Source: Escherichia coli (GTDB lineage: Bacteria; Pseudomonadota; Gammaproteobacteria; Enterobacterales; Enterobacteriaceae). Taken from it: a stretch of 64,000 nt of DNA. Location: NCBI RefSeq assembly GCF_003991155.1, contig NZ_CP031293.1. One strand, written 5' to 3'. Under the pieces are notes generated by a model. The model saw only the letters and a list, made by a program, of their open reading frames with translations. It was not told the origin of the DNA and made no database searches. How positions within the stretch are numbered: position 1 is the first letter of the stretch; every line of letters begins with the position of its first letter. Positions 1,612-19,732 of the stretch are shown here, in pieces. The translations under genes were made by a program, and so were the position numbers.

Positions 1612-3966
1612 CTATTTTGCAGTCACAACCTGCATGCCAGACGGTTCATTTTGCAGCGCCAGAGTCAGAACTTCCTCAATGCGTTTCACAGGATGAATAT
1701 CCAGATCGGCAATTACGTTGTCAGGAATCTCTTCCAGATCGCGTTTATTTTCGAACGGAATTAACACTGTTTTAATCCCGCCGCGATGCGCTGCCAGTAG
1801 TTTTTCTTTCAAACCACCGATAGGCAGTACCTGACCACGCAGAGTGATCTCACCGGTCATTGCCACATCGGCACGAACCGGGTTACCGGTCAGGCAAGAA
1901 ACCAGCGCGGTGCACATAGCAATACCGGCACTCGGACCATCTTTCGGCGTCGCACCTTCCGGTACGTGGACGTGGATGTCGCGTTTTTCATAAAAATCAG
2001 GGTTGATCCCCAGTTTTTCCGCACGCGCACGAACCACCGTTAACGCCGCCTGAATGGACTCCTGCATCACTTCGCCAAGCGATCCGGTATAGGTCAGTTT
2101 GCCTTTACCCGGAACGCACGCGGTTTCAATGGTCAGCAAGTCACCGCCCACTTCCGTCCACGCCAGACCAGTTACCTGACCGACACGGTTTTCGTTATCC
2201 GCGCGACCATAGTCGAAACGCTGAACACCGAGATAGTCATGCAGGTTATCGCCGTTAATTTCGATATGTTTTAATGACTTATCGAGCAGTAACTGCTTAA
2301 CCGCTTTGCGACACAGTTTGGAGATTTCACGCTCCAGACCACGCACGCCCGCCTCACGGGTGTAGTAACGAATAATGCCGATAATGGCGCTATCGTCGAC
2401 GGTCAGCTCACCTTTTTTCAGTGCATTACGTTCAATCTGCTTCGGCAGCAGGTGACGTTTGGCGATGTTCAGTTTTTCATCTTCGGTATAACCGGAGAGG
2501 CGAATCACTTCCATACGATCCAGCAGCGGTGCCGGAATGTTCATGGAGTTCGACGTCGCGACAAACATCACGTCGCTAAGGTCGTAATCCACTTCCAGGT
2601 AGTGGTCGCTGAACGCTACGTTCTGCTCTGGATCCAGCACTTCAAGCAGTGCGGAAGCCGGATCGCCTCGCATGTCAGAAGACATTTTGTCGATCTCATC
2701 GAGCAGGAACAGCGGGTTTTTCACGCCCACTTTCGCCATTTTCTGGATCAGTTTACCCGGCATAGAACCGATGTAAGTACGGCGGTGACCACGGATTTCC
2801 GCTTCATCACGCACGCCGCCCAGCGCCATACGGACATATTTACGCCCGGTGGCTTTGGCGATGGACTGCCCCAGGGACGTTTTACCTACCCCCGGTGGCC
2901 CTACCAGGCAGAGGATCGGTCCCTTGATTTTGTTGACACGGCTTTGAACCGCAAGATACTCAAGGATGCGATCTTTCACGCGCTCCAGACCATAATGGTC
3001 GGTATCAAGGATTTCCTGCGCCTGACGCAGGTCTTTTTTGACCTTGCTACGCGCATTCCACGGTACCTGTACCATCCAGTCGATATAACCACGCACTACG
3101 GTCGCTTCTGCCGACATCGGAGACATCATTTTCAGCTTCTGCAACTCTGCTTCCGCTTTCTCTTTTGCCTCTTTCGGCATTTTCGCCGCGTCGATTTTGC
3201 GCTTCAGGGCTTCGTTTTCGTCCGGCGCGTCGTCCATTTCACCGAGTTCTTTCTGAATAGCTTTCATTTGCTCGTTCAGATAGTACTCACGCTGGGATTT
3301 CTCCATCTGCTTTTTAACACGGTTGCGAATGCGTTTCTCAACCTGCAGCAGATCGATTTCCGATTCCATCATTGCCATCAGATATTCCAGACGTTCGTTA
3401 ACGTCGGACATCTCCAGAACGGACTGTTTGTCAGCCAGTTTCAGCGGCATATGTGCAGCAATGGTATCCGCCAGACGCGCCGGATCGTCGATGCTATTCA
3501 GCGACGTCAGCACTTCTGGTGGAATTTTTTTGTTCAGCTTGATGTAGCCTTCGAACTGGCTGATTGCAGTACGCACCAGCACTTCCTGTTCCCGCTCATC
3601 AATGGTCGGCGACTCCAGATACTCCGCCTTCGCAGAAAAGTGTTCGCCATTGTCAGAGAGCGCAGAAATACGCGCGCGCTGTAACCCCTCGACCAGCACT
3701 TTGACGGTGCCGTCAGGCAGTTTCAGCATCTGCAATATAGAGGCCACGGTCCCGACGGTGAAAAGATCGTTTACACCCGGCTCATCCGTTGAAGCTTCTT
3801 TCTGCGCGACCAGCATAATTTTTTTATCATGGTCCATCGCCGCTTCCAGACAACGGATAGATTTTTCCCGCCCGACAAATAAGGGGATGACCATGTGCGG
3901 ATAAACCACCACATCGCGCAGCGGCAATACGGGGATTTCAATGCGTTCAGAACGCTCAGGATTCAT
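1612..3966 (-). CDS. lon: ATP-dependent Lon protease
   Basis: ORF 1612..4011; recognised Lon N-terminus [28 protein letters not shown] begins 15 codons inside the ORF, so start set to 3966. Walker [10 protein letters not shown] and the serine-protease DGPSAG motif are present. Confidence 0.95.
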
Positions 3967-4153
3967 AGAGCTCTCTCTTAGTTTAATTTCCGCCAGGTAA
4001 TCAGATGACACGACTGTGCTTCACGCCATCTATTAACATGTACGTCAGTATATGGGGATGTTTCCCCCACATTCAACGCCGAGAATAGAGGAAAAATTAA
4101 AGGGGAGATAAAATCCCCCCTTTTTGGTTAACTAATTGTATGGGAATGGTTAA

Positions 4154-5428
4154 TTATTCACCAGATGCCTGTTGCGCTTCCGGCTTGCCATAAATCAGCA
4201 ACGGCTTGCTTTGACCATCAATTACCGATTCGTCGATAACCACTTTTTCGACGTCTTCCATGGACGGCAGATCGTACATGGTATCGAGCAGTGCGGCTTC
4301 TACGATGGAACGCAGGCCACGGGCACCGGTTTTACGCGCCATCGCTTTCTTAGCGATAGCATCCAGCGCCTCGTCACGGAATTCCAGATCCACGCCTTCC
4401 AGATTAAACAGCGCCTGATACTGCTTGGTCAGGGCGTTTTTCGGCTCTTTGAGGATCTGAATCAGAGCTTCTTCGCTCAGTTCATTCAACGTTGCGACAA
4501 CCGGCAGACGACCAATGAACTCAGGGATCAGACCAAACTTGATCAGATCTTCCGGTTCAACCTGCGCCAGCAGTTCACCTTCGCTTGCTTTGTCGGACTT
4601 CGCTTTTACCGTCGCGCCAAAACCAATGCCGGAACCGGTTTCTACACGATGGGAAATCACTTTATCCAGACCGGCAAACGCACCGCCACAGATAAACAGG
4701 ATCTTAGAGGTATCAACCTGCAAGAATTCCTGCTGCGGATGTTTACGCCCACCTTGCGGCGGAACAGCAGCTACCGTACCTTCGATCAGTTTTAACAGTG
4801 CCTGCTGTACGCCTTCACCGGAAACGTCTCGGGTAATGGACGGGTTGTCTGACTTACGAGAAATCTTGTCAATTTCATCGATGTAGACAATCCCGCGCTG
4901 CGCTTTCTGTACGTCGTAATCGCACTTCTGCAACAGCTTCTGAATGATGTTTTCAACGTCTTCGCCCACATAACCGGCTTCGGTCAGCGTGGTTGCGTCA
5001 GCCATGGTGAACGGAACGTCCAGCAGGCGCGCCAGCGTTTCGGCCAGCAGCGTTTTACCGGAACCGGTCGGACCGATCAGCAGAATGTTACTTTTGCCCA
5101 ACTCGACGCCATTGCTGGTATCTCCGTTGCGCAGACGTTTGTAGTGGTTGTATACCGCGACCGCCAGCACTTTTTTCGCCTGTTCCTGACCGATAACGTA
5201 ATCGTCCAGGTGGTTGCGAATTTCATGCGGCGTCGGTAGCGCACTGCGTTCACGATGCGGTGCAACTTCTTTAATCTCTTCGCGAATGATGTCGTTACAT
5301 AAATCAACACATTCGTCGCAGATATACACGGATGGACCGGCAATCAGCTTGCGCACTTCATGCTGGCTTTTGCCGCAAAAAGAGCAATACAGCAATTTGC
5401 CTGAGCCATCTTTGCGTTTATCTGTCAT
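4154..5428 (-). CDS. clpX: ATP-dependent Clp protease ATP-binding subunit ClpX
   Basis: 424 aa; N-terminal zinc-binding CSFCGKSQ...CDEC and AAA+ Walker A GPTGSGKT. Confidence 0.95.
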
Positions 5429-15148: not shown

Positions 15149-16039
15149 ATGATGTTTAAGCAATACCTGCAAGTAACGAAACCAGGCATCATCTTTGGCA
15201 ACCTGATCTCGGTGATTGGGGGATTCCTGTTGGCCTCAAAGGGCAGCATTGATTATCCCCTGTTTATCTACACGCTGGTTGGGGTGTCACTGGTTGTGGC
15301 GTCGGGTTGTGTGTTTAACAACTACATCGACAGGGATATCGACAGAAAGATGGAAAGGACGAAGAATCGGGTGCTGGTTAAAGGCCTGATCTCTCCTGCT
15401 GTCTCGCTGGTGTACGCCACCTTGCTAGGCTTTGCTGGCTTTATGCTGCTGTGGTTTGGCGCGAATCCGCTGGCCTGCTGGCTGGGGGTGATGGGCTTTG
15501 TGGTTTATGTCGGCGTTTATAGCCTGTACATGAAACGTCATTCTGTCTACGGCACATTGATTGGTTCGCTCTCCGGCGCTGCGCCTCCGGTGATCGGTTA
15601 CTGTGCGGTAACCGGCGAGTTCGATAGCGGCGCAGCGATCCTGCTGGCTATCTTCAGCCTGTGGCAGATGCCTCACTCCTATGCCATCGCCATTTTCCGC
15701 TTTAAGGATTACCAGGCGGCAAACATTCCGGTATTGCCAGTGGTAAAAGGCATTTCGGTGGCGAAGAATCACATCACGCTGTATATCATCGCCTTTGCCG
15801 TTGCCACGCTGATGCTCTCTCTTGGCGGCTACGCTGGGTATAAATATCTGGTGGTCGCCGCTGCGGTGAGCGTCTGGTGGTTAGGCATGGCTCTGCGCGG
15901 CTATAAAGTTGCTGATGATCGAATCTGGGCGCGCAAGCTGTTCGGCTTTTCTATCATCGCCATCACTGCCCTCTCGGTAATGATGTCCGTTGATTTTATG
16001 GTGCCGGACTCGCATACGCTGCTGGCTGCTGTGTGGTAA
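15149..16039 (+). CDS. cyoE: Heme O synthase (protoheme IX farnesyltransferase)
   Basis: ORF 15104..16039; recognised N-terminus [29 protein letters not shown] begins at 15149. Confidence 0.9.
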
Positions 16040-16054
16040 CACAACCTCTCTATA

Positions 16055-16080
16055 AAAAAGGTGCTACGGCACCTTTTTTA
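16055..16080 (+). terminator. Intrinsic terminator of the cyo operon
   Basis: aaaaaaggtgctacggcacctttttt: perfect 6-bp stem (aggtgc/gcacct), 4-nt loop, A-tract before and T-tract after, 16 nt beyond the cyoE stop. Confidence 0.8.
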
Positions 16081-16092
16081 TTGTCTGAGATC

Positions 16093-16168
16093 AGAGATAC
16101 GGCTAATAACCGTATCTCTTGACAGAGTGAGCATATGCACATAAATTAATCACACGGTTGATAGCCGT
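16093..16168 (+). promoter_or_regulatory. Two related palindromes (ATACGG-N7-CCGTAT type) upstream of the antitoxin gene; candidate operator sites
   Basis: Perfect inverted repeat agagatacgg-ctaataa-ccgtatctct at 16093-16119, and a weaker copy acgg-ttgatag-ccgt at 16154-16168, both within about 130 bp upstream of the ATG at 16224. Confidence 0.4.
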
Positions 16169-16223
16169 ATTATGCATGAGATCGACTCCCTACGATTTCA
16201 TTCAGTTAATCAAAGAGGTCATA

Positions 16224-16535
16224 ATGCCTGGAAAAACAGTCGCTCTACCCGATATCGATAAAACGCTGAAAAATGCGCGGGTTGAACTCAAAACCAGTCC
16301 CGACGCCAAAAACAAACTTCGTGAAGCTGCGCAAGCCGTTGGGGTAGATTTAAGCGCTTTTATTTTGAGCGCAGCTATGGAACGCGCCGAAAGTGTGCTT
16401 GATAACCAACGTCGCCGTGAGCTTTCGAATCAAAGCTGGGAACTGATGAACCAACTCATCGCTGAACCTGCTCAACCGACGCTCGCCCTCAAGGCGTTAA
16501 TGAAAAGGAAAAACAGCGATGGTCGACAAGCATGA
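16224..16535 (+). CDS. DUF1778-family type II antitoxin (TacA/AtaR-like), partner of the downstream GNAT toxin
   Basis: ORF-track frame 16158..16535; I place the start at ATG 16224, preceded by RBS aaagaggt, giving MPGKTVALPDIDKTLKNARVELKTSPDAKNKLREAAQAVGVDLSAFILSAAMERAESVL. Size (about 103 aa) and overlap with the GNAT toxin fit the DUF1778 antitoxin family. Confidence 0.7.
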   Translation: MPGKTVALPDIDKTLKNARVELKTSPDAKNKLREAAQAVGVDLSAFILSAAMERAESVLDNQRRRELSNQSWELMNQLIAEPAQPTLALKALMKRKNSDGRQA

Positions 16536-17061
16536 AGAGATTACTCTGCCCATAGTCCTCTCCTGTAATTATCAGTCTGATATTATTTATCCTGGGCAAA
16601 AACAGTTTGATTGCGGTAACCCTGTTATCGATAAATTTGTACGCGCATCGCTAAAGAAAAGTGTGCGTAATAGCGACTGTGCTGCTAAAGCTCTTATTGA
16701 CAGACAAAGTGGTGAACTGATTGGCATCTGTACTTTTACGGCATATTCGCTGGAAAAACAACGCGTTTCTGGCGTCCTTCAGGGTTCACAACCTTCAGAG
16801 ATTGGTGTTGTCAGATTAGTCATGTTAGGGGTAGCGCGGAAATATCAAAAGCGGGGCTTTGGTCAGGACCTACTATGTAATTTTTTTGAACATGTAAAAA
16901 TAATTCACCGGGCATTACCAATTAAAGGGGTTTATCTTGATGCTGACCCTGCCGCCATTAACTTTTATACTCGCCTCGGCTTTGTTCAGCTTTCAGCGAG
17001 GCCCAATGTTTTCGGTGCTGTACCGATGTTTTTAGCGATTCAGCATATTCTCGCGGCTTAG
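16519..17061 (+). CDS. GNAT-family acetyltransferase toxin (TacT/AtaT/ItaT-like; predicted aminoacyl-tRNA acetyltransferase)
   Basis: 180 aa, ATG at 16519 overlapping the antitoxin 3' end by 17 nt; FDCG motif near the N-terminus and GNAT acetyl-CoA motif QKRGFGQDLL. Confidence 0.7.
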   Translation: MVDKHEEITLPIVLSCNYQSDIIYPGQKQFDCGNPVIDKFVRASLKKSVRNSDCAAKALIDRQSGELIGICTFTAYSLEKQRVSGVLQGSQPSEIGVVRLVMLGVARKYQKRGFGQDLLCNFFEHVKIIHRALPIKGVYLDADPAAINFYTRLGFVQLSARPNVFGAVPMFLAIQHILAA

Positions 17062-17116
17062 ATTATTATCGCCTCCGGCCAGGGCTAGTTTTGCCTCAGC
17101 CGGGGACTGAGCAGCG

Positions 17117-17398
17117 TTACCACTTTTGTTCAATTGCCCCCGCTTTCAGCAACTCCACATCCTTGCCGTTAATGGTTGCCGTTGCGGCAACGATTGTGGT
17201 CCTTACAGTTGCACAAGATTTTCGCTCAAATTCCGGTTTATAAAGAATTAGAGACGAATTACTGGTAAATGAATCAAATATGTAATCAGTAAAGCTAATA
17301 TTCAGCCGGTTTAAACCGAAAGGCGCGAAGCCAACCGTTTGGTTAATCTCCTTACCGGATGGGCTACGAATGCTGAATGTCACGCGAAGATTGGCCAC
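17117..17398 (-). CDS. Hypothetical small protein (93 aa), immediately downstream of the Sel1-repeat gene
   Basis: ORF MANLRVTFSIRSPSGKEINQTVGF...TVRTTIVAATATINGKDVELLKAGAIEQKW; no recognisable family; may be a gene fragment. Confidence 0.3.
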   Translation of the reverse strand: MANLRVTFSIRSPSGKEINQTVGFAPFGLNRLNISFTDYIFDSFTSNSSLILYKPEFERKSCATVRTTIVAATATINGKDVELLKAGAIEQKW

Positions 17399-17403
17399 TT
17401 CGC

Positions 17404-17961
17404 CTAATTTATTGGTGGTCCGGAAGACTTTCTGTCAATCATGTCTTTTCGACATGTAGCCAGAAAGTCTTCCGGACCACCATAAATGTGGACACCTTTA
17501 TCAAGATATTCCTTCGCTTTCTTACAATCTACCTCAACATACTGACCATTGGCGTACATCATGCCCAACCTGGACCATGCTAAATTCACACCGTATTGCG
17601 CGGCCTGATTAAATAGTGCATACGCTTTGGCATAATCCACCCGCACCAGCTCACCGTCGTAGTAGATACTCCCCAGCGCTAACGGAGCTTCTCTATCACC
17701 GTGTTTAACGGCTAACTCAAACCATTTAATCGCTTCCTGAACATCAGGTTTGGTATCAAAGCGAGGCTGATAATATTCCCAGCCTAACAGGCTCTGCGCG
17801 TCGACATCTCCCAATTCAGCCATTTTATGCAGTCTATTTATAACATCGGGCGCAGGTTGACCACCGTATATGCTGTCATACAATTCATGCGCTTTCTCGC
17901 TTGCCACCACGCATGGTGAAACTATTAGCATTAAAGAAAATAATATTCTTTTAGTTAACAT
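17404..17961 (-). CDS. Secreted Sel1-like repeat (TPR-like) protein
   Basis: ORF 17404..18021; probable start at the ATG at 17961 giving signal peptide MLTKRILFSLMLIVSPCVVA, followed by Sel1-type repeats (AQSLLGWEYYQ..., ALGSIYYDGELVRVDYAKAYALFNQAAQYG, AWSRLGMMYANGQYVEVDCKKAKEYLDKG). Confidence 0.65.
   Translation of the reverse strand: MLTKRILFSLMLIVSPCVVASEKAHELYDSIYGGQPAPDVINRLHKMAELGDVDAQSLLGWEYYQPRFDTKPDVQEAIKWFELAVKHGDREAPLALGSIYYDGELVRVDYAKAYALFNQAAQYGVNLAWSRLGMMYANGQYVEVDCKKAKEYLDKGVHIYGGPEDFLATCRKDMIDRKSSGPPIN
17415..17481. repeat. Nested perfect palindrome (21-bp inverted repeat around an inner 6-bp hairpin)
   Basis: ggtggtccggaagactttctg (17415-17435) and cagaaagtcttccggaccacc (17461-17481) are exact reverse complements; the 25-nt spacer contains catgtc-ttttc-gacatg. 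Confidence 0.85.
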
Positions 17962-18367
17962 GTATACCTTTATGTTCTCTCTGTCATATATTTCCATAAT
18001 AATTAACCACCAAACATCCATTTAATGAATAAATACAGTGCCATAAAGGCCCAAGTAATAAGCACACATTTAACCTGAAACATTATCATCGATGTCACCA
18101 AATCGTTTATTTAGTGAGATAAAAATAGCATGTTCGCAAGATAAAAAATGCACATAGCAATCAAGAAATAATATTATTACTTTTGATGTAAAACTATTTA
18201 GCTTTAAGAATAATTTTTTCAACATATAGAGCATTCATTTTATGAATGCAAAATAAACATGCCTGACACACAAACTATTCTCCTCTGTAATATTTTCTCA
18301 TTAACACTCTGTTTACCCAACATGCGCTCCGCACTACACTATGTGGGCATTTTTTTAAGAGGTGGTA

Positions 18368-19732
18368 ATGAACGATTATAAAATGACGCCAGGTGAGCGG
18401 CGCGCGACCTGGGGTTTAGGCACCGTTTTCTCGTTGCGCATGCTGGGCATGTTCATGGTTCTGCCGGTTCTGACCACGTACGGCATGGCTCTGCAAGGTG
18501 CCAGCGAAGCATTAATCGGTATTGCCATTGGTATTTATGGTCTGACTCAGGCCGTTTTTCAGATTCCGTTTGGCCTGCTTTCAGACCGCATTGGTCGCAA
18601 ACCATTAATTGTCGGTGGGCTGGCGGTGTTTGCCGCCGGTAGCGTTATTGCTGCGCTCTCCGACTCCATCTGGGGAATTATTCTGGGCCGGGCGTTACAA
18701 GGTTCTGGAGCGATTGCCGCTGCCGTTATGGCACTACTTTCTGATCTCACGCGCGAACAAAACCGCACCAAAGCGATGGCGTTTATCGGCGTGAGCTTTG
18801 GCATTACCTTTGCCATTGCGATGGTGCTTGGCCCGATCATCACTCACAAACTTGGACTGCACGCGCTGTTCTGGATGATCGCTATTCTGGCAACAACCGG
18901 CATTGCGTTGACCATTTGGGTTGTGCCCAACAGTAGCACTCACGTACTTAATCGTGAGTCCGGAATGGTGAAAGGCAGTTTCAGTAAAGTGCTGGCGGAA
19001 CCGCGGTTGCTGAAACTCAACTTTGGCATTATGTGTCTACACATGCTTCTGATGTCTACGTTTGTTGCCCTGCCCGGACAGCTGGCTGATGCGGGGTTCC
19101 CGGCGGCTGAACACTGGAAGGTCTATCTGGCGACGATGCTAATCGCCTTTGGCTCGGTCGTGCCTTTCATTATCTACGCTGAAGTTAAGCGCAAAATGAA
19201 GCAAGTCTTTGTCTTCTGCGTCGGATTGATCGTGGTTGCGGAAATTGTGTTGTGGAACGCACAAACGCAGTTCTGGCAACTGGTGGTCGGCGTGCAGCTT
19301 TTCTTTGTAGCGTTTAATTTGATGGAAGCCCTTCTGCCTTCACTTATCAGTAAAGAGTCGCCTGCAGGTTACAAAGGTACGGCGATGGGTGTTTACTCCA
19401 CCAGCCAGTTTCTTGGCGTGGCGATTGGCGGTTCGCTGGGCGGCTGGATTGACGGCATGTTTGACGGTCAGGGCGTATTTCTCGCTGGCGCAATGCTGGC
19501 CGCAGTGTGGCTGGCAGTCGCCAGTACCATGAAAGAACCGCCGTATGTCAGCAGCTTGCGCATTGAAATCCCGGCGGACATTGCCGCAAACGAAGCGTTA
19601 AAAGTACGTTTGCTGGAAACTGAAGGCGTCAAAGAAGTGTTGATTGCAGAAGAAGAACATTCAGCGTATGTGAAAATCGACAGCAAAGTGACGAATCGCT
19701 TTGAGGTTGAACAGGCAATTCGCCAGGCATAA
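18368..19732 (+). CDS. yajR: MFS transporter YajR
   Basis: ORF begins at GTG 18362; recognised N-terminus MNDYKMTPGERRATWGLGTVFSLRMLG starts at ATG 18368; 12-TM MFS protein with C-terminal soluble domain. Confidence 0.9.
   Translation: MNDYKMTPGERRATWGLGTVFSLRMLGMFMVLPVLTTYGMALQGASEALIGIAIGIYGLTQAVFQIPFGLLSDRIGRKPLIVGGLAVFAAGSVIAALSDSIWGIILGRALQGSGAIAAAVMALLSDLTREQNRTKAMAFIGVSFGITFAIAMVLGPIITHKLGLHALFWMIAILATTGIALTIWVVPNSSTHVLNRESGMVKGSFSKVLAEPRLLKLNFGIMCLHMLLMSTFVALPGQLADAGFPAAEHWKVYLATMLIAFGSVVPFIIYAEVKRKMKQVFVFCVGLIVVAEIVLWNAQTQFWQLVVGVQLFFVAFNLMEALLPSLISKESPAGYKGTAMGVYSTSQFLGVAIGGSLGGWIDGMFDGQGVFLAGAMLAAVWLAVASTMKEPPYVSSLRIEIPADIAANEALKVRLLETEGVKEVLIAEEEHSAYVKIDSKVTNRFEVEQAIRQA

Follow-up and report, generated by a model that had tools for sequence, protein, structure and literature searches.

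Between the heme O synthase gene cyoE and the transporter gene yajR, a 64,000-nucleotide stretch of the Escherichia coli genome (assembly GCF_003991155.1, contig NZ_CP031293.1; the whole stretch is referred to below as the window, and positions are counted from its first letter) carries a gap of about 2.3 kb (from the end of cyoE at 16039 to the start of yajR at 18368), where K-12 strain MG1655 has a spacer of just 148 bp. This raises the question of what the additional segment encodes and whether it was gained by the window lineage or lost from K-12. A preliminary description, made from the sequence alone, had correctly placed the two genes side by side in K-12 and had read the segment as a strain-specific accessory insertion with four open reading frames (ORFs), namely a DUF1778 antitoxin, a GNAT toxin, a 93-residue ORF and a secreted Sel1-repeat protein. 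The present analysis makes it very probable that this is an already known islet of the chromosome, variable among strains and composed of two independent, convergent units, the published toxin-antitoxin pair itaRT and a Sel1 gene broken by a template switch, and that it is not a recent insertion.

The first of these units consists of two overlapping genes:

16224..16535, plus strand: itaR, ribbon-helix-helix/DUF1778 (TacA-type) antitoxin, 103 residues (RefSeq coding sequence; PDB relatives).
16519..17061, plus strand: itaT, GNAT aminoacyl-tRNA N-acetyltransferase toxin, 180 residues, apparently intact (PDB 7BYY match).

By sequence, the two genes correspond to the type II toxin-antitoxin (TA) system published as itaRT, since the window ItaT is about 96% identical to PDB entry 7BYY over all 180 residues (E 4.5e-114), its key residues are intact and the BL21-derived strain C43(DE3) carries the islet at exactly the cyoE-yajR site. 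The entry 7BYY is the crystal structure of ItaT (Zhang et al., 2020; PMC7367177), and the position in C43(DE3) agrees with the statement that BL21(DE3) possesses itaRT as well as E. coli HS, from which the system was characterized (Wilcox et al., 2018; PMC6125619). The residues used for checking were taken from these two studies, and the catalytic Tyr150 as well as the aminoacyl pocket residues V36, I37, F40 and M102 are all kept in the window protein. The antitoxin gene lies upstream and overlaps itaT by 17 bp; relatives of ItaR in the PDB are KacA and AtaR-type DUF1778 antitoxins, and Pfam TacA1 is recorded on ItaR orthologues of 82-86% identity. In an NCBIfam search every match lay far under its cut-off. 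The family names given in the preliminary description (DUF1778 antitoxin, tRNA-acetylating GNAT toxin, exported Sel1 protein) were accordingly correct, but its view that the toxin-Sel1 combination matches no described unit does not hold for the TA half.

The window pair shares its locus, its genes, the gene overlap and the upstream promoter region with ItaRT of E. coli HS and BL21(DE3), and also the cyoE-yajR position (as seen in the BL21 derivative), but its allele, which is common to SMS-3-5-like strains, has diverged by about 3.5% at the DNA level. Three of the 103 ItaR residues differ from the main, BL21-type allele, all of them N-terminal, and ItaT shows six substitutions relative to the common allele (positions 23, 121, 131, 151, 161 and 164), none at a residue shown to matter. 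The AtaRT, TacAT and KacAT systems resemble ItaRT in the layout of a ribbon-helix-helix/DUF1778 gene followed by a GNAT gene and in the chemistry of aminoacyl-tRNA acetylation, but their PDB alignments with ItaT are weak (best E values of 2.3e-08 to 1e-04) and their aminoacyl-tRNA preferences are reported to differ from those of ItaT (PMC6125619; PMC7367177).

For the HS allele it has been established that ItaT alone is toxic and is neutralized by ItaR, that Ile-tRNA(Ile) is acetylated and Val- and Met-tRNAs less efficiently so (PMC6125619; PMC7367177), and that the ItaR-ItaT complex represses the operon promoter, as demonstrated with the 172-bp upstream region (PMC6125619). The 96% identity and the intact key residues suggest the same mechanism for the window allele. 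ItaT would then transfer an acetyl group from acetyl-CoA to the alpha-amino group of charged Ile-tRNA(Ile), with Val- and Met-tRNAs as poorer substrates; the acetylated aminoacyl-tRNAs would be unusable in elongation, so that translation would stall. ItaR would bind and neutralize ItaT, and the complex of both proteins would repress its own promoter, probably through two palindromes placed around it:

16093..16170, plus strand: candidate itaRT promoter and operators (promoter scan, inverted repeats and cross-genus conservation).
16093-16119, plus strand: palindrome 1, core ATACGGCTAATAACCGTAT (inverted repeats I3/I6 set).
16119-16124, plus strand: candidate -35 element, TTGACA (promoter scan).
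16142-16147, plus strand: candidate -10 element, TAAATT (promoter scan).
16152-16170, plus strand: palindrome 2, ACACGGTTGATAGCCGTAT (inverted repeats I3/I6 set).

The sigma-70 candidate upstream of itaR matches the consensus at 10 of 12 positions, and the two related palindromes that flank it have ATACGG-N7-CCGTAT cores. Escherichia and Pseudocitrobacter do not differ in these cores, in the -35 element or at the junction with the cyo terminator, whereas adjacent bases diverge, and we regard the palindromes as putative operators of ItaRT.

The second unit lies on the opposite strand, convergent to itaRT, and has the following parts:

17117..17961, minus strand: pseudogene of an exported Sel1-repeat/IrmA-like beta-sandwich protein, 311 residues when intact (RefSeq and intact alleles).
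17404-17961, minus strand: N-terminal fragment ORF with the signal peptide and the Sel1 repeats, 185 residues (the mechanical ORF reaches 18021).
17117-17398, minus strand: C-terminal fragment, the '93-residue ORF', which is the 3' part of the same gene.
17413..17482, no strand assigned: template-switch scar, a perfect 22-nt inverted repeat with arms at 17413-17434 and 17461-17482.

The four ORFs on two strands listed in the preliminary description are thus present, but two of them are halves of a single gene, and the segment holds three genes, one of them a pseudogene, not four. In the RefSeq annotation of strain 2016C-3878, which is 100% identical to the window across 15700-18700, positions 17117-17961 form a single frameshifted 'tetratricopeptide repeat protein' pseudogene, and other strains carry an intact gene of 936 nt and 311 codons at the same place. 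Compared with the closest intact allele, that of SBF22, only 7 single-nucleotide polymorphisms are found outside the junction, at which about 106 bp have been replaced by 15 bp, a net loss of 91 bp that puts the two parts out of frame, so that the gene broken by this deletion appears as two ORFs.

The sequence of the scar identifies the event as a replication template switch of the quasipalindrome type, since the junction is an exact reverse complement of downstream sequence. Specifically, 17413-17434 is the reverse complement of 17461-17482 (inverted repeat I1, 100% complementary), the inserted reverse complement copies sequence situated about 40 bp downstream, and pre-existing microhomologies (GGTGGT/ACCACC and TTTCTG/CAGAAA) are found at the switch points. 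A single switch in the window lineage would account for the net 91-bp loss, for the perfect hairpin (DNA fold of -32.8 kcal/mol, z = -12.1) and for the separation of the Sel1 part from the beta-sandwich part. An Rfam match of this hairpin to a plant miRNA precursor (MIR5229, 44 bits) is spurious and reflects the template-switch hairpin. About 106 genomes have the window-type allele, with the gene still intact in SMS-3-5; since 1319 genomes, against about 1368 islet carriers, still contain the deleted segment, the broken form belongs to a minority lineage of roughly 30-50 genomes.

The extent of the segment was defined by alignment to the empty site and is described by its flanks and boundaries:

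15149..16039, plus strand: cyoE (heme O synthase), left flanking core gene (ORF list and RefSeq of the identical strain).
16052..16081, plus strand: cyo operon terminator hairpin, ATAAAAAAGGTGC/GCACCTTTTTTAT, a 13-nt perfect inverted repeat (I5).
17962..18361, no strand assigned: AT-rich divergent intergenic region from the Sel1 gene to yajR, 25-35% GC.
18368..19732, plus strand: yajR (major facilitator superfamily transporter), right flanking core gene (RefSeq and ORF list; RefSeq start at 18368, with a GTG ORF opening at 18362).

The variable segment runs from 16083 to about 18309, some 2.2 kb. Its left edge (16082/16083) is directly 3' of the cyo terminator hairpin, as had been proposed, and on the right, at about 18309/18310, the match to the empty site picks up again at TGTTTACCC, near 18310; the final 50 bp or so upstream of yajR are homologous to the empty site but diverged. 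The AT-rich stretch noted earlier on this side is confirmed by the base composition (25-32% GC at about 18000-18300, compared with 42-47% for the islet and 52-55% for the flanks); the intergenic region is 84.5% identical in Escherichia albertii and 95% identical in the main E. coli allele, and an Rfam scan of it returned no family. The stem of the cyo terminator differs between Escherichia (GGTGC/GCACC) and Pseudocitrobacter (CCCGC/GCGGG; loci L012 and L008) by fully compensatory changes, while the T-run and the following ATTGTCTG are kept.

The segment is indeed polymorphic in its presence or absence. Among 5426 complete E. coli genomes searched by megablast with 15700-18700, the full segment was detected in 1367 and the flanks in 5424, with non-carriers matching the flanks only; the segment is absent from MG1655 and likewise from the K-12-like strain Trp01, so that these genes are a core region neither of K-12 nor of most E. 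coli. At the empty site, some 47 bp of unrelated sequence take the place of the segment, which is accordingly not a clean insertion. One record, NZ_CM135829.1, is labeled as E. coli DH5alpha, a K-12 derivative, but at 4.83 Mb is larger than K-12 and contains the islet that K-12 lacks; this label is probably wrong. In E. coli HH97 (L005, 2374-3549) the cyoE-yajR spacer is 1.17 kb long, rich in poly-G, devoid of ORFs and patchily similar (82%) to the Sel1 gene, and about 20 genomes gave partial matches of a similar kind, at 80-90%. A reading of the HH97 spacer as a decayed islet or 'third state' was rejected, the poly-G runs and the lack of ORFs pointing to an assembly artefact.

The part of the preliminary description that fares less well is the insertion itself. 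A recent horizontal gain of a strain-specific islet by the window lineage at the cyoE-yajR junction would fit with the absence of the segment from 75% of E. coli including K-12, with a GC content below that of the flanks, and with the fact that TA modules are typical mobile cargo and that orthologues of ItaT ride on P2-like prophages. The divergence of the genes, on the other hand, tells against such a gain. DNA identities between the window and the common E. coli allele are 97.4% for cyoE, 98.1% for itaR, 96.3% for itaT, 96.8% for the Sel1 gene and 97.6% for yajR, i.e. the islet alleles (96.3-98.1%) have co-diverged with the flanking core genes (97.4-97.6%). Compared with Pseudocitrobacter, the corresponding identities are 84% for cyoE, 84-88% for itaR, 79.5-83.5% for itaT, 67-69% for the Sel1 gene and 77% for yajR; itaRT again tracks the flanks, and the Sel1 gene evolves faster.

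Furthermore, the same layout is found outside E. coli. In a Pseudocitrobacter sp. (L012), cyoE is followed by itaR (86%), itaT (88%) and, convergently, a 308-residue Sel1 homologue (Sel308, 59%) and a second, longer paralogue, and the junction with the cyo terminator is the same as in the E. coli islet. The E. albertii interval contains the Sel1 gene (81%) and, in place of itaRT, a gene for a 325-residue secreted protein, of which no remnant was detected in the E. coli islet. In Salmonella enterica (L101, 5001-11031), a cluster of about 6.4 kb without a TA pair lies between yajR and cyoE; it comprises three Sel1/beta-sandwich paralogues of about 490 residues, a 326-residue secreted protein and a 116-residue remnant of a Sel311-type gene, so that the Sel1 family has clearly undergone both duplication and decay at this site. 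The 325/326-residue proteins (E. albertii L006, 6048-7025; Salmonella L101, 8001-8981) are 65.5% identical to each other and are also present in Pseudocitrobacter; they have a signal peptide, and searches of Pfam, PHROG and PADLOC gave no match.

Signs of mobility are missing as well. The islet contains no integrase or transposase among its ORFs and no tRNA gene, and no direct repeat or target-site duplication flanks it; in E. coli it occupies a single chromosomal site and has no genuine plasmid copies, which is not the picture of a mobile genomic island. Three PLSDB 'plasmid' records of 1.2-4.8 Mb (CP061270.1, NZ_OL790696.1 and CP099174.1) carry the islet; plasmid carriage was rejected, as these are almost certainly mislabeled chromosomes or chromosome fragments. 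Because of the flank-like divergence, the identical Pseudocitrobacter layout and junction, the E. albertii and Salmonella clusters in the same interval and the lack of mobility signs, loss is the likelier direction, and a recent insertion is improbable. Most likely, K-12 and about 75% of E. coli lost the segment. Across the Enterobacteriaceae the cyoE-yajR interval has probably long housed a changing cluster of Sel1-family genes, which is reduced in the E. coli islet and completely lost in K-12.

Whether the two units belong together is a separate question, and it is within E. coli only that the genes always travel together. There the TA query is found in 1368 genomes and the Sel1 query in 1370, always at the cyoE-yajR locus; outside E. 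coli the picture is mixed. Orthologues of ItaT with 60-77% identity are widespread in the Enterobacterales; they are found in P2-like prophages, in a cpxP-fieF islet and on an element resembling a plasmid, but never with a Sel1 gene. Conversely, Pseudocitrobacter cyperus has a 484-residue Sel1 paralogue near cyoE without a TA pair, as is the case for the E. albertii and Salmonella clusters. In Pectobacterium actinidiae a 489-residue paralogue in another genomic context is convergent to a GNAT/TacA pair whose toxin is 23.5% identical to ItaT, and at the syntenic site of P. zantedeschiae (L013) this pair is missing, leaving the Sel1 gene and a helix-turn-helix gene. On another Pseudocitrobacter contig (L008, 5927-6233) itaT is reduced to residues 11-89, itaR remains as an intact orphan antitoxin and the Sel1 genes are intact; an apparent REP-like, GC-rich palindromic sequence is seen there between the itaT remnant and the 3' end of the Sel1 gene.

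The perfect linkage in E. coli, the convergent arrangement kept in Pseudocitrobacter and the non-orthologous GNAT/TacA pair beside a Sel1-family gene in P. actinidiae (in a different genomic context) might be taken to indicate a functional unit, in which, for example, the Sel1 gene would be stabilized or regulated by the TA pair, or the toxin would be set off once the Sel1 protein senses a signal from the envelope. However, the genes form separate convergent transcription units with cytoplasmic and exported products, respectively, and either half can be intact where the other is broken or missing: the window has a dead Sel1 gene beside an intact itaRT, contig L008 shows the reverse, and P. zantedeschiae has the Sel1 gene but lacks the TA pair. 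The linkage in E. coli follows from the one locus that both units share, and a functional unit of this kind is very unlikely indeed. Since both partners are widespread in the absence of the other, the TA-Sel1 pairing in E. coli is a matter of shared ancestry at one locus, a synteny and not an obligate unit; the only hint to the contrary is the second, independent adjacency to a GNAT pair in Pectobacterium. A wider conjecture, also very unlikely, is that a fast-evolving and uncharacterized Sel1/IrmA-like family, with one to three paralogues per locus, has occupied the cyoE-yajR interval since before the Escherichia-Salmonella-Pseudocitrobacter split and that its recurrent adjacency to GNAT/DUF1778 pairs might mean functional coupling, for example of an envelope- or host-facing binding protein with a locus guarded or regulated by a translation-blocking toxin.

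The distribution of the toxin also bears on what itaRT does at this site. In P2-like prophages of several genera, in Enterobacteriaceae and Pectobacterium, the variable slot that separates the Phage_GPA replication gene from the portal gene contains ItaRT-like modules whose toxins are about 70% identical to ItaT:

about 3700-4540 in each of L094, L095, L097 and L098: ItaRT-like modules in P2-like prophages.

This slot is known for its anti-phage cargo. In P. actinidiae (L011, 7137-11470) the GNAT/TacA pair is followed by a dnstrm_HI1420-type gene and by genes for a UvrD-like helicase and an AAA_15/OLD-TOPRIM protein, a neighborhood that looks like a Gabija-type defence island. Both observations would accord with a role of itaRT in abortive-infection phage defence, as opposed to stress or persistence functions or a selfish addiction module, and such a role is compatible with the mechanism of ItaT. 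However, neither ItaR nor ItaT matches a PADLOC defence-system model, a literature search turned up nothing on GNAT/DUF1778 systems acting against phages, and the functional significance of ItaT is described as unknown in the original study (PMC6125619). Phage defence at the cyoE-yajR site is for these reasons a tentative and rather doubtful proposal. Two short, unannotated 'Escherichia phage' records, OR845150.1 (6.5 kb) and OR844664.1 (2.3 kb), contain an itaT with 97-99% identity to its chromosomal counterpart, probably from host DNA that was packaged or carried over as a contaminant; carriage of the window itaT allele by phages is unsupported by these two fragments.

The product of the intact Sel1 gene is a 311-residue protein with a hydrophobic, signal-like N-terminus, three Pfam Sel1 repeats and a conserved C-terminal domain of about 140 residues, and four cysteines are invariant across the family. 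Sel1 repeat motifs and an alpha/alpha solenoid fold are both present, the architecture being seen in AlphaFold 2 models with pLDDT values of 86 and 84.5, and the C-terminal domain is predicted to adopt a fibronectin type III (FNIII)-like beta-sandwich. The protein would accordingly begin with a signal peptide, continue with three to four Sel1 repeats and end in a beta-sandwich that contains disulfides and has an IrmA-like predicted fold. Its N-terminal sequence and conserved cysteines suggest export, and it is probably a periplasmic or secreted binding or scaffold protein.

IrmA (C1275; PDB 5EK5), which uropathogenic E. coli secretes, is an FNIII-like 'interleukin receptor mimic' (PMC4807369). 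A profile built from 13 of the C-terminal domains found no PDB match at E <= 10, and the structure-based identity to IrmA is 14%; for these reasons the domain is not assigned to the IrmA family, and the likeness is one of predicted fold. The domain also differs from IrmA in being fused to Sel1 repeats, while the domain-swapped dimer and cytokine binding are features of IrmA. Compared with the exported Sel1-like repeat proteins EsiB (c5321), HcpC and LpnE, the protein is much shorter, with its three to four repeats, and those proteins lack the C-terminal beta-sandwich to which the repeats are fused here.

The C-terminal domain family forms 35 clusters (at 50% identity) among 1.84 billion representatives, the domain being located at the C-terminal end wherever a listed protein is long enough to tell, and its AFDB50 members come from Salmonella, E. 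fergusonii, Pectobacterium, Morganella, Proteus and Achromobacter. A weak PADLOC match of the Sel1 protein to PtuA (18 bits, with no stretch passing by itself) was disregarded. The UniProt label 'zinc-dependent hydrolase' on A0A0H3MM38, A0A376ZPS8 and A0A376P1S9 finds no support in sequence or model and is likely a propagated annotation error. No literature on the gene was found through guessed locus tags, the guesses making this absence weak (ECs0482, for example, is cyoE). In a genome-wide Sel1 survey the search patterns lay inside the generic Sel1 repeat, with the result that 77 of the 80 loci were unrelated and only L012-L014 were usable.

Several points weigh against the reading of an old islet with two independent units. 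An ancient locus with subsequent loss is likely but not proven, and similar patterns would result if the islet had been transferred long ago by homologous recombination in its cyoE and yajR flanks; the comparison, moreover, covers Escherichia, Salmonella and Pseudocitrobacter but no genera placed phylogenetically between them. The disparity between the Sel1 protein (59%) and ItaT (88%) in amino acid identity to Pseudocitrobacter could reflect different histories and not different rates, and as the 47 bp or so of the empty site have no counterpart in the islet, the deletion event is not reconstructable. With six substitutions, the activity of the window ItaT is predicted from identity and from the intact key residues, and both the operator assignment and the export of the Sel1 protein stand on inference.

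For comparative work on E. coli, the use of K-12 as a reference leads to an ancestral locus being mis-scored as an 'insertion', and the '93-residue ORF' of the window is not to be counted as a gene. The TA pair is already known, its mechanism and crystal structure having been published, and RefSeq annotates the islet as a matter of routine. The halves of the intact Sel1 protein resemble EsiB and IrmA, two E. coli antigens that bind host factors. What novelty remains lies in this compact, uncharacterized family of putatively exported Sel1/IrmA-like proteins, fast-evolving, present in the common laboratory strains BL21 and HS and only mildly new as an element, and in its conserved home beside the cyo operon.

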